This document shows positions 3,441-61,200 of a stretch of 64,000 bases of DNA, piece after piece. Both the position numbers and the translations under genes were made by a program. This stretch comes from an uncultured Candidatus Binatia bacterium. GTDB taxonomy: Bacteria > Desulfobacterota > Binatia > Bin18. The stretch spans positions 254,639 to 318,638 of the forward strand of contig OZ242288.1 of NCBI GenBank assembly GCA_965207575.1. Reading direction: 5' to 3'. Under the pieces are notes generated by a model. That model was given only the letters and a program-made list of their open reading frames with translations, made no database searches and was not told the DNA's origin. Position 1 is the stretch's first letter, and each line of letters begins with the position of its first letter.

Positions 3441-3492
3441 AAGGAGCAAACGTACCCTCCATTATATCCAGATGTTGGTACGTTTACTCCTT
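3441..3492. repeat. Palindromic element copy 1
   Basis: aaggagcaaacgtacc-ctcca...-ggtacgtttactcctt; 15/16 arm match; 13 nt upstream of the DMFase large-subunit ATG. Confidence 0.8.
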
Positions 3493-3504
3493 CCAAACCG
3501 CGGC

Positions 3505-3927
3505 TTAGTCTGTAATCCCATAGGCGTCGAGTAAGGCGTTGAGGCGTTTGAGGAAAATCGCATGCTCGGCGTCTTCGCGGGTTGGATAGGCTTCGTCCGT
3601 TATTTCAACCGCCTTGCCCCGGACGCCAGGCAAAACACCAATACGATATTCCTCCCAGGGGCGTGTTTCGATAATGACGTGTTTGTCCTGCTGGGGGACA
3701 ACGCGCAGGCGATCCAGCAAACGGGCCAACTCTGAGCTGTCCATGGGGGCGGGCTTGCCGGGTTGGGCGGCCTCATACAGCGGACGGGCGCGGTGCTCGG
3801 CAATCAGCGCGGCGCGGCGCTCGGGGTCGGCGAGCGCCGGCAGGAGGTACATCCGGGTGTTATAGGCATCGACCGCCCGGTAGGAGTAATCGTCTTGCAG
3901 GGCTGTTTTTTCCGGCTTGTTTTCCAT
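3505..3927 (-). CDS. N,N-dimethylformamidase small (alpha) subunit-like protein
   Basis: LIAEH...S.EL.RLL..LR and EDAEHAIFLKR motifs; directly upstream of the large subunit; AAGGAGG RBS. Confidence 0.75.
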   Translation of the reverse strand: MENKPEKTALQDDYSYRAVDAYNTRMYLLPALADPERRAALIAEHRARPLYEAAQPGKPAPMDSSELARLLDRLRVVPQQDKHVIIETRPWEEYRIGVLPGVRGKAVEITDEAYPTREDAEHAIFLKRLNALLDAYGITD

Positions 3928-4060
3928 ATGGCCCTCCTTTTGTCCCACAACAGATCGCAAGCAGGCCCCCAGCCTAGCTGGCTCCATTGCGAAAGCCAAG
4001 ATTTTTTGACGAGTACTAGGATATCCCCTGAGAAGAGGAATGGATATGTCAGTACGCCCT

Positions 4061-4164
4061 CGTCATGCCGGACCTGATCCGGCATCCAGAGGCCGGGAGC
4101 CCTTCGACTTCGCTCCGCTCAGGGTGAACGGCGGGCCTGGATTCCTGCTTCCGCAGGAATGACG
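4061..4164. repeat. CGTC-type REP pair enclosing a second small palindromic element (REPIN-like)
   Basis: cgtcatgccggacctgatccggcatccag ... ccttcgacttcgctccgctcagggtgaacgg ... ctggattcctgcttccgcaggaatgacg; the two REP hairpins are in inverted orientation. Confidence 0.75.
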
Positions 4165-4190
4165 GGCGGCCACACAGAAGCGTAATCTGC

Positions 4191-5069
4191 CTAAGCGGCC
4201 GGCGCTGTTGTCTTGATATCGGCCAGGAACTCAATGACCGCCTGGCTGAAAATGTCGTTTTTATCTCCGGCAACCATATGGCCGGCATCGGACACATCCA
4301 CGTATTTGGCATGCGGCACGGCATCGAGGAATTCCTGGGTCGTTTCGTCGCTGATCACGTCGCTGAGTTTTCCCCGGACGAGCAGGGTCGGCACCCGCCG
4401 CAGCCCGCGAGCCGCTGCCATAAGCCGTTCGGGGTCGCGCCGAAAGCGGGCCGGGTTCATGAGGTTCGGGTCCCAGTGCCAGCGGTAACGGCCGTCCTCT
4501 CCCTGACGCAGGTTTTTGGCCAGACCGCTCACATCCTTTGGGCGGGGACGGTGAGGAATATAGGCGGCGATGGTATCGGCGACTTCTTCCAGACTCTCAA
4601 AACCGTCGGGTCGGGCGGTCATGAAGGCCCGAATACGGTCCACGCCCTTCTTCTCCACCCGCGGCGTGACATCGACCAGCACCACCCCGGCGCTCACCGG
4701 CTGCGGCGCTTCCCCTTCGGTCAGCATTGAGGTAATGCCGCCCAGGGAGGCCCCGACCAGGACCGGCCGTTGGTCGAAATGACCCAGCACAACGTGGAGG
4801 TCCGCAGAAAACTTCTCGATATTATAGTTGCCGTCCGGAGCCCAGCCGCTCTCTCCATGCCCGCGCAGGTCCAGGGACACCGCATACCAGCCGTGCTCGG
4901 CCAGGGTCCGGGCCGTACTCCCCCAGGCAAAGCGCGTTTGGCCGCCGCCGTGCAGGAGCAGGACGGGCGGATTGCCGGTGTCTCCCCAGGCGTCACCGAT
5001 AATGGTGAGTTCTTCTTCGACACGATAGGTTACACGTTGGGCTGAGACGTCTGCTTGCTGTTCGGACAT
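4191..5069 (-). CDS. Alpha/beta hydrolase
   Basis: HGGGQT, DLRGHG, GASLGG nucleophile elbow, AGHMVAGD. Confidence 0.9.
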   Translation of the reverse strand: MSEQQADVSAQRVTYRVEEELTIIGDAWGDTGNPPVLLLHGGGQTRFAWGSTARTLAEHGWYAVSLDLRGHGESGWAPDGNYNIEKFSADLHVVLGHFDQRPVLVGASLGGITSMLTEGEAPQPVSAGVVLVDVTPRVEKKGVDRIRAFMTARPDGFESLEEVADTIAAYIPHRPRPKDVSGLAKNLRQGEDGRYRWHWDPNLMNPARFRRDPERLMAAARGLRRVPTLLVRGKLSDVISDETTQEFLDAVPHAKYVDVSDAGHMVAGDKNDIFSQAVIEFLADIKTTAPAA

Positions 5070-5258
5070 GTATGCACTCCTGAATGTGTTCCAGTCGAGG
5101 GACGAGCCGTAAAATCGAGGGGAACCCTACCATTCAGCCCGAACAGTGACAAGGTCGGATTATCAGAGAGGAATACAGCTGTATAAAGTTTTCTTGTCCT
5201 ATAGGAGCTTGCCTCTTGTCTGGAAGATTCGTACACAGGAAGGGAAAAGGAGGATGCC

Positions 5259-59412: not shown

Positions 59413-59427
59413 GGCAGCCTTTCGCCC

Positions 59428-60453
59428 TCAGGGTACGACTTCGTATTTGATCCCCTCGCCACGCTGCATACGATCAAACGCCTGACACAGGTCAACCAGA
59501 GGGTAGCGACCACTAATCAGGTACTCGGTTGGAATCTGCCCGGATATGAGCAATTCGGACGCTTTGCGCACGGCGGCCGGGTTAAAGTGAAAGGGGCTCG
59601 ACAGACGAATCTGGTCATAGTGCAGCCGGGTCGCATCCAGCGAAACCTTGGTTCCCTGCGGACAGCCGCCAAAGAGAACGACCTGACCGCCGGGACGGGC
59701 AAAGAACAGGGATTCCTCCCAAACGCTCGGCTGGGCCGTACACTCAATGACCAGGTCTGCCCCTCGGCCTCCGGTGGCCTCCAGGACTTCTTCCCGGGCC
59801 TCCTCAGCCGGACGGGCAATCACGCGGCAGGCGCCGAGTTCGCCCGCGACTCTGGCCCGGTCCGGGTTCCGCGCTACCATACAGACCCGCTCCAGACCAA
59901 ACATCTTTAAGAGGATGAGGTGCAACAGTCCAAAGCCACCCGCGCCAATAATCACCACCGTGTCTTCGGGCGTGAACGTCACCTGCTGTAATCCAAAGAC
60001 CACACACGACACCGGCTCCAACAGCGCGGCTTCGACAAAAGGCAGGCTTTTTGGTTTGGAGAACATATTAGATCTGACAATCCGACCGGGAAGGTTGACG
60101 TATTCCGCATAGCCGCCAAATGCCATGGTCGTCATGAGTGACGTACACAGGTTTTCCTGGTCACGCCGGCAATAAAAGCAGAGACCGCACGGACCGGTTG
60201 GTGCGAGCATGACGTCGTCGCCCTCACGGAAGTTCGTGACCTGCGACCCGCACGCAGTAATCGTTCCGGAGTATTCATGGCCAAAACGGATCGGCGGGGG
60301 CATCTTGGGATGGCCACGCAAAAAAGCCTTGAGATCTGTTCCGCAGGTCAGGGCAGACTCAACCTTCAGCACGACATCTTCGGGACCCGGTTCCGGCACG
60401 GGCAATTCCTGACAGGCAATCTTCCCTGGGCCAAGCAGTAACACCGCCTGCAT
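59428..60453 (-). CDS. Zinc-binding (MDR family) dehydrogenase
   Basis: CGTD, GHE, CxxCxxCx7C and GAGGFG motifs; start MQAVLL with an AGGAA RBS. Confidence 0.9.
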   Translation of the reverse strand: MQAVLLLGPGKIACQELPVPEPGPEDVVLKVESALTCGTDLKAFLRGHPKMPPPIRFGHEYSGTITACGSQVTNFREGDDVMLAPTGPCGLCFYCRRDQENLCTSLMTTMAFGGYAEYVNLPGRIVRSNMFSKPKSLPFVEAALLEPVSCVVFGLQQVTFTPEDTVVIIGAGGFGLLHLILLKMFGLERVCMVARNPDRARVAGELGACRVIARPAEEAREEVLEATGGRGADLVIECTAQPSVWEESLFFARPGGQVVLFGGCPQGTKVSLDATRLHYDQIRLSSPFHFNPAAVRKASELLISGQIPTEYLISGRYPLVDLCQAFDRMQRGEGIKYEVVP

Positions 60454-60479
60454 AGTCGCAACTTCCTTCTCCGCGCCGC

Positions 60480-60533
60480 AAAGAGGAAACATGTCCAGCT
60501 TTTGTGAGTGATTGGAGGGCATGTTTTCTCTTT
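60480..60533. repeat. Palindromic element copy 15
   Basis: aaagaggaaacatgtcc-agc...tgga-gggcatgttttctcttt. Confidence 0.88.
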
Positions 60534-61094
60534 CTACCAGAGCAAGGGGCGGACGTGAAAATGATAATGATCCGGAATCTGCCGCATATTGTGGTCGAAC
60601 ATCCACTTCGGGAATTTCCCGGTATACTTTTGTTCGGCCACGATATTGAGGGCATTTTCCATAAACGCAACCTCTTCCGGACGCACATCGACGCGGTGCT
60701 CGCCAAGGACCGCGATGGGCACCTCGCAGGAATCGCAGTCGAGAATGGTGAAACGGAAGGGAGCGTAAAACTCGGCATACCACTGCGTATAATGGGCCAT
60801 CTCACACAGGTCGCATATTCGGCCGGTTGGCATTGTACCCACTGGAGAGGGTTGAGAATCAAGCGGCCGGACTTTACCGTTCTGTTGCTGTTCCGCCACA
60901 AAATTCAGGACCTTGTCCATGTAGGCCAGGTCTTCTGCACGAATATCATCAAGCGGGGTTTCTACCGTCACCGTCAATGGGGCTCCAGCTTCCCGGCCGA
61001 CAAGGGTAAAAGCGAGTGGATAGTGAAATATCACGAGCGGCTGTGTTTCCCCCTGAGGGACGCCTTGTGAGAGCCACACTGGATGATCGGCCAC
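60534..61094 (-). CDS. Hypothetical protein with C-terminal HIT-like domain
   Basis: CDLC, CDSC and terminal IPDHYHFH motifs; AGGA RBS. Confidence 0.7.
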   Translation of the reverse strand: MADHPVWLSQGVPQGETQPLVIFHYPLAFTLVGREAGAPLTVTVETPLDDIRAEDLAYMDKVLNFVAEQQQNGKVRPLDSQPSPVGTMPTGRICDLCEMAHYTQWYAEFYAPFRFTILDCDSCEVPIAVLGEHRVDVRPEEVAFMENALNIVAEQKYTGKFPKWMFDHNMRQIPDHYHFHVRPLLW

Positions 61095-61150
61095 TGGTTA
61101 TCCTTCCTGCACGCTTATATTCGCTCACTCCGACGGCGCCCTCCCCCTTG

Positions 61151-61200
61151 AAAGAGGAAACGTGTCCAGCTTTTTTGAACGGAGGACACGTTTCCTCTTT
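61151..61200. repeat. Palindromic element copy 16
   Basis: aaagaggaaacgtgtcc-agc...cgga-ggacacgtttcctcttt; perfect 17-bp arms. Confidence 0.93.

Follow-up and report, generated by a model that had tools for sequence, protein, structure and literature searches.

A very small palindromic mobile element, inserted without target-site duplication, in a Candidatus Binatia genome

Introduction

A stretch of 64,000 nucleotides (nt) from the genome of an uncultured Candidatus Binatia bacterium (contig OZ242288.1, positions 254,639 to 318,638; referred to here as the window) contains 16 dispersed copies of a palindrome of ~54 bp. The question that this locus raises is what these copies are and how they came to lie where they do. 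An initial annotation, made from the sequence of the window, proposed either a non-autonomous mobile element, similar to a MITE (a miniature transposable element with inverted repeats) or a REP sequence, or a structured regulatory element amplified in this lineage. We conclude that the repeat family is mobile DNA, and that it is a new element, very small and inserted without duplication, with similarities to both REPINs and Rickettsia palindromic elements (RPEs). The best explanation as a whole, to which we assign a probability of roughly 0.7, is that the copies are very small non-autonomous mobile hairpin elements, moved in trans as folded single-stranded DNA (ssDNA). The most interesting point, which is absent from the initial annotation, is that the element inserts in frame into genes and donates stop codons to others.

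Results

Structure and copy number of the repeat family

The source genome (G000) is a single contig (C1) of 4.71 Mb with 58.4% G+C, in which the window corresponds to C1:254639-318638. All 16 copies were confirmed, both by inspection of the arms and with an nhmmer profile. Two inverted arms of 15 to 17 nt surround a spacer of 16 to 22 nt at 16/16 of the listed starts, and the profile recovers every copy, 14 of them at an E value of ≤6e-6. The arm pattern AAGAGKAAACGTGTCC (≤2 mismatches) has 20 matches in the window versus 0.03 in shuffled sequences, and none of 100 shuffles reaches 20. The weakest copies in the profile are those at 10794 (E = 0.025) and 48943 (E = 0.11); these are real, because relatives show a clean gap of 54 to 55 bp at the same site.

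Genome-wide, the iterated profile detects 213 loci at a threshold of E ≤ 1e-3, and the statistics on copy length and flanks given below cover the 210 loci in which both arms could be delimited. Copy length is 54 bp in 120 of these and 55 bp in 49, with a range of 48 to 58 bp. The element is composed of two complementary 17-bp arms (AAAGAG, then G or T, then AAACGTGTCC, and the complement of this) and a spacer of ~20 nt, of which only the ends (AGC...TGGA) are conserved. The asymmetric spacer described in the initial annotation holds for most window copies, in which AGC...TGGA is on the plus strand, while the copies at 3441, 34472, and 38203 have it inverted and match the profile on the minus strand. 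Paralogous copies differ at 16.5% of sites in the arms and at 46% in the spacers. Our reading is that transposition reshuffles the spacers or that different source lineages have different ones.

Among the 54-bp copies in G000, there are no identical pairs, and the nearest neighbor in sequence is mostly 1 to 5 nt away. The closest pairs (1 to 2 differences) include copies that are only 100 to 316 bp apart (C1:553683 versus 553999 and C1:986152 versus 986253), which hints at local hopping or local duplication. Copy density in the window is ~5 times the genome average (~3 per 64 kb), and the window lies inside a dense zone at 0.2 to 1.0 Mb with 7 to 16 copies per 100 kb. There are zero copies at 1.5 to 1.7, 2.4 to 2.6, and 3.1 to 3.6 Mb. 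The GC skew across the copy-dense zone is weak; the cumulative skew has its minimum at ~1.05 Mb and its maximum at ~2.85 Mb.

Empty and occupied sites in close relatives

The syntenic regions of five relatives (G001 to G005) were aligned with the window junction by junction. An empty orthologous site, with a gap of 53 to 64 bp at the element borders, is present in one or more close relatives for 12 of the 16 window copies. Ten of the 12 gaps are 53 to 57 bp long and coincide with the borders of the palindrome, the exceptions being a gap of 58 bp at copy 38203 (in G004) and one of 64 bp at copy 61151 (in G001). The copies at 14148 and 44718 are occupied in all four of the close relatives G001 to G004. 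At many sites, copies have thus been either inserted or precisely lost after closely related Binatia species diverged. Empty orthologous sites are thus common and many copies lie outside the window, as expected for mobility; these observations, together with the restriction of the ~210 copies to one lineage, uphold the mobile-element half of the original proposal.

The initial annotation saw no obvious target-site duplication, and this holds genome-wide. None of the empty/filled junctions shows duplicated flanking bases, and across the 210 copies no direct repeat of 2 to 5 nt at the tested offsets is meaningfully above shuffles. The sole effect at the junction is 1 nt long: base -1 is identical to base +1 in 41% of copies. 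The same copies have a weak target preference with twofold symmetry, in which G is present at -5 in 55%, C at -4 in 42%, and A at -6 in 2%, mirrored on the 3' side by C at +5 in 59% and T at +6 in 2%.

Orthologous copies differ at 10.7% of arm positions (94/878) and 13.2% of spacer positions (77/585), while the flanks, which are largely coding, differ at 8.0% (432/5,390). After insertion, copies drift about neutrally. At two orthologous sites, the spacer is inverted with the arms unchanged (copy 14148 in G002 and G003; copy 61151 in G002), which suggests recombination between the arms. Two sequencing runs labeled as sponge metagenomes (X5 and X8) contain long pieces that are 97 to 99+% identical to positions 44000 to 62000 of the window, with the alaS copy described below in place.

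Copies inside protein-coding genes

The context statistics place 34 of the 210 copies inside called open reading frames (ORFs). Of these, 25 are >100 amino acids deep, in 19 genes, and the remaining 9 probably reflect over-extended N termini. Host proteins, named by Pfam, include AlaRS, MnmG (2 copies), MetH (2 copies), Mfd, an AcrB-like pump, AddA-like (1 copy) and AddB-like (2 copies) proteins, MltA, a MoxR ATPase, and a TolC-like protein. Seven of the intragenic insertions (in alaS, the rimO/miaB-like gene, and lnt, two in mnmG, and two in metH) were compared with empty orthologues; Mfd, the AcrB-like pump, and the other hosts beyond mnmG, metH, and the window genes are identified by gene calls and Pfam only.

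Three of these hosts are in the window, and each gains 18 amino acids. The copy at 53636 to 53689 (plus strand) is in frame in alaS (51790 to 54486, minus strand; Pfam tRNA-synt_2c at residues 5 to 578, tRNA_SAD, and DHHA1), where it encodes 18 residues (in EKQKRVLQSSAKAGHVSAF) that separate the catalytic part from the one for tRNA recognition. Exactly 18 residues are added in G000 and in L001/G001 (97% identical), and there is an exact gap of 18 amino acids/54 bp in L014, L002, and L042 (93 to 94% identity), L009 (83%), and L004 (76%). In an alignment to PDB sequences, the insert falls between Escherichia coli AlaRS residues ~264 and 269, past the catalytic domain. (An AlphaFold2 model of this AlaRS from a 7-row alignment was poor, with a mean predicted local distance difference test score of 45.6 and a predicted TM score of 0.27, and was not used.) The copy at 45821 to 45874 (plus strand) is in frame in a rimO/miaB-like gene (ORF 44803 to 46479, minus strand), between the UPF0004 and Radical_SAM domains, and encodes EKRERVLQSDKKSGPVPSS. 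It is present in G003 and G004, while G001 and G002 are empty with an exact 54-bp gap. The third copy, at 48943 to 48997 (plus strand), is a decayed one in frame in the CN_hydrolase region of lnt (48489 to 50120, minus strand). It is filled in G001, G003, and G004 and empty with a 54-bp gap in G005, and it has lost its hairpin stability (z = -0.81).

Elsewhere in the genome, both MnmG inserts and one 17-amino-acid MetH insert are found in G000 only, among it and five other genomes; they are missing even from G001, in which the proteins are 97% and 94% identical, respectively. The second MetH insert is common to G000, G004, and G019 and is absent from G001, G018, and G022.

The length of the element is a multiple of 3 in 31 of the 34 copies inside ORFs, versus 103 of the 176 copies elsewhere (Fisher P = 1.6e-4), and the host frame is open through all 34. 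Two frames of one orientation dominate, giving K-R/S-K-R-V-L-Q-S..K-A-G-H-V-S-S or R-G-N-V-S-S-N-R-H-E-M-L-D-T-F-P-L. The lengths and the open frames argue, at the level of sequence, that intragenic copies are translated rather than removed. Metatranscriptome runs X19 and X20 contain contigs that are ~90 to 95% identical to the window and that have joints at 53636, 54526, and 45821. Because these joints match the empty alleles of relatives, the contigs are uninformative on processing in the G000 strain.

Copies at gene ends

In 58 of the 163 flanks that face a gene end, the stop codon is within positions -9 to +1 of the element border. The stop codon is formed by element positions 7 to 9 in 33 flanks (33 genes), where the donated sequence is AAA GAG TAA in most and ends with TGA or TAG in some variant copies. 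In other flanks, the stop codon ends 2 nt inside the element (9 flanks), 1 nt inside (5 flanks), at the border (8 flanks), or 1 nt before it (3 flanks). The excess fits a survival filter, with 33 cases in the frame that reads TAA within the arm and 9 and 5 in the frames that need a T or a TA/TG from outside.

A window copy illustrates this. The 53-bp copy at 54526 to 54578 (plus strand) provides the TAA stop of the gene at 54570 to 55034 (minus strand); it is filled in G001 and G003 and empty in G002 and G004. The protein ends with ...GREASDD* in the empty alleles and with ...GRDE* in the filled one, so that the element inserted five codons ahead of the original stop and gave the protein a new tail. 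For annotation, this means that 33 genes take their stop codon from the element and that some predicted start codons are inside it. Such starts were seen in eight tandem contexts genome-wide, in which the called start of the downstream gene is 41 to 46 nt inside the element. When placed from the consensus, it appears to be the GTG of the arm, following the Shine-Dalgarno-like AAAGAGG, and it may be an artifact of the gene caller or a donated start site.

Arm pairing and tests of regulatory function

In an alignment of 38 copies, 95% of 646 cells in the arms are paired, so that the 17-bp arms have the complementarity of the terminal inverted repeats (TIRs) that characterize MITEs. Compensatory double changes occur in 10 of the 17 arm pairs, and none of 500 shuffles has as high a covariation score. 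As ssDNA, copies fold with -7.5 to -18.1 kcal/mol, and 9 of the 10 tested have z ≤ -4. On the sense strands, there is no excess of G-U over A-C (72 versus 80 in tandem intergenic contexts and 20 versus 36 inside ORFs). None of the 10 copies at positions 44000 to 62000 is among the 25 sites with an intrinsic-terminator-like pattern there; the loop of the element is ~20 nt and its T run is 3 to 4. We read this as symmetry that matters during propagation and not for a later function in RNA or for the host. The regulatory alternative in the initial annotation is not supported, because copies are present in essential genes, divergence is fast, there is no G-U excess, and the element does not fit a terminator.

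Searches for a mobilizing enzyme and for known relatives of the element

The statement that no transposase lies in the window holds for the families that we tested (PF01609, PF07282, PF01797, PF01548, and PF00239). IS110-type transposases (PF01548) have no match in G000 and are found in 1 of the 28 genomes of the genus, and serine recombinases (PF00239) have none in G000 or in most copy-rich genomes. The single TnpB-like gene (PF07282) of G000 is outside the window and >20 kb from any copy. Matches to PF01609 in G000 are also all outside the window, and across the genus this family correlates loosely with the element, with exceptions both ways. None of these four families tracks the element cleanly across the genus.

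The initial annotation suggested looking for a RAYT/Y1 or insertion sequence (IS) transposase flanked by the motif, and none was found in G000. Four pairs of arms are 1 to 6 kb apart; these enclose ordinary genes and no transposase. Nineteen genes are flanked on both sides by copies, and by eye, from their first 100 residues and with no Pfam scan, none is transposase-like; they include scpA, PAC2, and radC-, recR-, lepB-, and thrS-like genes. The genome does contain an 855-bp IS5-family element (DUF4096 plus DDE_Tnp_1, with an apparent frameshift) in five near-identical copies, one of them at C1:2224722-2225577, and a 2.5-kb IS1-like repeat in two identical copies (C1:38665-41145 and 2717596-2720076). 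In G000, the one genome searched in full for a parent IS, the ends of the IS5-like and IS1-like elements and of other repeated segments of ≥300 bp are unlike the arms.

No match to a described family was found. In Rfam, the best weak hit is a microRNA model with 19.1 bits versus a gathering score of 97 (E = 0.49, two copies), and BLAST searches of plasmids and phages with the tandem pair (positions 47184 to 47325) gave no match. A search of viral contigs with the pattern AAACGTGTCC-N16-26-GGACACGTTT gave two loci, both of them GC-rich palindromes that are unrelated to the element and have no match to the profile. In keeping with the initial annotation, there are no classical REP ends, since no GTAG-type tetranucleotide is conserved. 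We found no description of the repeat family in the literature on Binatota/Binatia (supplementary files were outside the scope), and the text of PMC9531527 is without wording on palindromes, MITEs, inverted repeats, or transposition.

Distribution and a second repeat family

The genomes of relatives were scanned, as had been proposed, with a covariance model built from the 38 copies. It has matches in 18 of the 24 other genomes of the genus, and the 16 genomes that represent other genera of the class have none. At the family level, the model is positive in 18 of 27 genomes in genus g1 and 3 of 8 in genus g20 and negative in all 19 genomes drawn from a further eight genera. High-scoring copies number zero in G008, G014, G015, G018, G020, G022, G025, G026, and G048 and 26 to 95 in most of the others. 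Two complete genomes of the same genus, G018 and G022, are without any copy, and G025 contains only low-scoring copies, with 40 matches at a threshold of E ≤ 1e-3 but none at 1e-12. The distribution looks like the outcome of bursts and decay that differ between lineages.

In nine copies, conservation extends into the flanks, and these flanks are part of another, GC-rich repeat family, whose units are ~45 nt long and form two small hairpins. This second repeat consists of GGAACCCACCCC, a small GC hairpin, AC, and a CCCTCC..GAGGGG hairpin, and it has dozens of copies, some of them head-to-head (e.g., C1:171420-171465, 661679-661725, and 3013430-3013473; mosaics with the element are L151 to L159). 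Its 5' motif occurs 80 times (≤2 mismatches, some by chance), and there are 41 and 97 occurrences of its hairpin motifs. The 54-bp element is at the same point between the two hairpins in ~11 copies, including both variants of the first hairpin; this shared nesting point is either a favored target or the sign of a mosaic that spreads as a unit.

Discussion

How the element may move

The explanation that we favor has the following steps. The element inserts without a target-site duplication of 2 to 5 bp, at weakly symmetric targets. It would be recognized and moved as a folded ssDNA hairpin by an enzyme that acts in trans, on the model of REPIN/RAYT and of the IS200/IS605 family, in which insertion is duplication-free and depends on DNA hairpins. 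We prefer a hairpin mechanism because the arms keep their complementarity and not a fixed sequence, because a 54-bp duplex is too short for its two ends to be synapsed, and because no duplication is made. Selection appears to have filtered the surviving sites, leaving copies in intergenic DNA, in the last codons of genes, and at permissive sites in proteins. At gene ends, an arm of the T variant gives an immediate stop (TAA, or TGA/TAG in variants), and at permissive sites a copy of length 3n would be read through as 17 to 18 extra residues.

Several observations weigh against this explanation or limit it. No mobilizing enzyme was found in the families searched. A search with PF01797, which contains the Y1 transposases and RAYTs, is negative in G000, G001, and G002 and positive in 6 of 14 control genomes; the Y1 genes of G003 to G005 have no copy of the element within their 1.5-kb flanks. 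A target preference with twofold symmetry is more typical of enzymes that act on duplex DNA. The covariation of the arms partly reflects subfamilies and is no proof of selection on the hairpin. To account for patchy presence, such as that of copy 45821 in G003 and G004 and not in G001 and G002, one has to assume that copies were lost precisely, were inserted repeatedly, or were exchanged between lineages by recombination. Activity may have ceased, since no two copies in G000 are identical. The context statistics rest on a crude in-house gene caller, and translation of the inserted codons is deduced from sequence.

A bolder version is that the element represents a new class of hairpin transposon, the smallest known that colonizes essential genes in frame, inserted flush and moved as a folded hairpin by an unrecognized enzyme that is not of the Y1/HUH type or by host replication or repair. 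We regard this as tentative, and rather improbable. If it is true, the spacer inversions and the near-identical neighboring copies would be traces of the mechanism.

Alternative explanations

The main rival, to which we give a small chance, is an ordinary duplex MITE of the TIR type, whose arms are bound by the DDE transposase of a resident IS. The arms do resemble 17-bp TIRs, the genome carries the IS5-family (five near-identical copies) and IS1-like (two copies) elements, the target preference is twofold symmetric, and PF01609 is missing from most genomes of the genus that are free of the element (G008, G015, G018, G022, and G026). However, the correspondence with PF01609 fails in both directions: G027 and G028 are copy-rich without it, and G025 and G020 have it but contain decayed copies or almost none. 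Such a MITE should also have a duplication of 2 to 5 bp, ends in common with a resident repeated segment, or a pair of arms that encloses a transposase, and we found none of these. Finally, the complementarity of the arms is kept by double changes, which recognition of TIRs does not need.

About as improbable is that the repeats are REPs/REPINs proper and depend on a RAYT that has diverged beyond detection or was recently lost. The hairpin, in which the arms are conserved and the spacer is very variable (16.5% versus 46% divergence between paralogues), agrees with what passages of PMC3337134 describe for REPINs, no duplication is made, and the element occurs in mosaics with a second repeat family, which is GC-rich and palindromic. 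Against this are the PF01797 search, which is negative in the source genome and two close relatives and positive in 6 of 14 control genomes, the Y1 genes of the other three relatives without flanking copies, and the copy-flanked genes, which are not transposase-like on inspection by eye of their first 100 residues. There is also no conserved GTAG-type tetranucleotide, and copies are found inside genes.

We consider it very unlikely that the element is a structure useful to the host, such as a terminator, an mRNA-stabilizing hairpin, or a protein-binding site, that was selected at gene ends. The proximity of stop codons to the border in 58/163 flanks and a stable hairpin bracketed by AAA and TTT speak for such a structure. 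However, the stop-codon excess fits a simple survival filter, copies are in frame in alaS, mnmG, metH, and other genes, and sites are polymorphic between close relatives. In addition, orthologous arms and spacers change at least as fast as the flanks, G-U is not in excess over A-C on the sense strands, and none of the 25 terminator-like sites in the 44- to 62-kb region is a copy.

Intron-like removal of intragenic copies from the transcript can practically be dismissed, since the RNA contigs that join across the alaS and 54526 copies are ~91% identical to the window, have other letters at the joint, and match the empty DNA alleles of relatives, and since removal would require neither a length of 3n (31/34) nor an open host frame (all).

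Comparison with known systems

In function, the closest system to the mobile hairpin that we propose is the RPEs, which we compare with it by description. Passages of the review PMC10969869 give 44 RPE integrations in Rickettsia conorii, nearly half of them within ORFs. As described there, RPEs are, like the Binatia element, palindromic repeats that are unusually often in frame in unrelated housekeeping genes without destroying the protein. A transposase is known for neither. In contrast, RPEs are ~150 bp long and belong to obligate intracellular Alphaproteobacteria, while the Binatia element is 54 bp (18 amino acids), its host is free-living or sponge-associated, and ~85 to 90% of its copies are intergenic.

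REPINs are also close, because they too are hairpins in which the arms are conserved and the spacer varies. Like the element, they are, in passages of PMC3337134, non-autonomous hairpins with hundreds of copies that are lineage-specific and form mosaics with other palindromic units. Unlike REPINs, the element is without a RAYT (PF01797) in G000 and two close relatives and without a GTAG-like motif, its arms are not small palindromes themselves, and its spacer is an open loop of ~20 nt. It is also not extragenic as REPs and REPINs are, with ~25 copies >100 amino acids into ORFs.

Bacterial MITEs are typically ~100 to 300 bp long, so the element is smaller. MITEs such as Correia, ERIC, RUP, and Nezha resemble it in that they are short, non-coding, dispersed, and bounded by TIRs and are sometimes fused to ORFs in frame (from passages of PMC10969869), but the element differs in having no target-site duplication, no parent IS that we could find, and arms that co-vary. 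Palindrome-associated elements derived from IS200/IS605 share the hairpin and the absence of a duplication, but there is no Y1 TnpA in G000 and no fixed 5' tetra- or pentanucleotide at the insertions.

The element is thus a second, independent, and much smaller case, after Rickettsia, of selfish DNA within protein-coding genes. Because many complete genomes at graded distances are available in this uncultured phylum, insertions can be dated and empty and filled alleles compared. The tolerance of AlaRS, MnmG, and MetH to a fixed 18-residue insert is open to study, and the combination of no recognizable transposase with recent, lineage-specific insertions makes the mobilizing activity a well-defined question.

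Other copies in the window

The remaining copies are mostly between genes. The copy at 3441 to 3493 (minus strand; 52 to 53 bp; E = 6.8e-8) is intergenic, immediately 5' of the ribosome binding site and start codon of a gene with a DMFA2_C domain; it is filled in G001 and empty in G002 and G004. Two copies bracket scpA (ORF 10013 to 10792, minus strand). The first, at 9993 to 10046 (plus strand), is entered for 35 nt by the ORF, which terminates inside it; this copy is filled in G001 and empty with a 55-bp gap in G002, G003, and G004. The second, at 10794 to 10847 (plus strand), is diverged and adjoins the scpA start codon; it is filled in G001 and G002 and empty with a 55-bp gap in G003, G004, and G005.

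The copy at 14148 to 14201 (plus strand), for which no empty site was seen in G001 to G004, is 5' of a β-ketoacyl synthase gene. The 56-bp copy at 34472 to 34527 (minus strand) is 5' of a fused acyl coenzyme A carboxylase gene, and its site is empty with a 57-bp gap in G003 and G004. The copy at 38203 to 38256 (minus strand) is intergenic and filled in G001 to G003; in addition to G004, it is absent from G005. The 52-bp copy at 44718 to 44769 (plus strand) is immediately 5' of the ribosome binding site of the gene at 44286 to 44705 (minus strand).

The tandem pair, at 47184 to 47237 and 47272 to 47325 (both plus strand), is between the PAC2 and prfB-like genes. Its first member is filled in G004 and empty with a 55-bp gap in G001, and its second is filled in both. 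The 52-bp copy at 50165 to 50216 (plus strand; E = 2.5e-6) is intergenic, 5' of lnt, and filled in G003; its neighborhood is rearranged in G001, G002, and G004. The copy at 60480 to 60533 (plus strand) is 5' of a Zn-dependent alcohol dehydrogenase gene and is filled in G001, G003, and G004 and empty with a 54-bp gap in G002. The last copy, at 61151 to 61200 (plus strand; 50 bp), is intergenic, absent from G001, and filled in G002 (with the inverted spacer), G003, and G004.

Between alaS and its upstream gene, at 51743 to 51795, there is a possible 17th, decayed copy (nhmmer E = 7.4), which was not counted. The sole Rfam match in the window that reaches its gathering score is a tRNA gene at 8523 to 8596 (minus strand).

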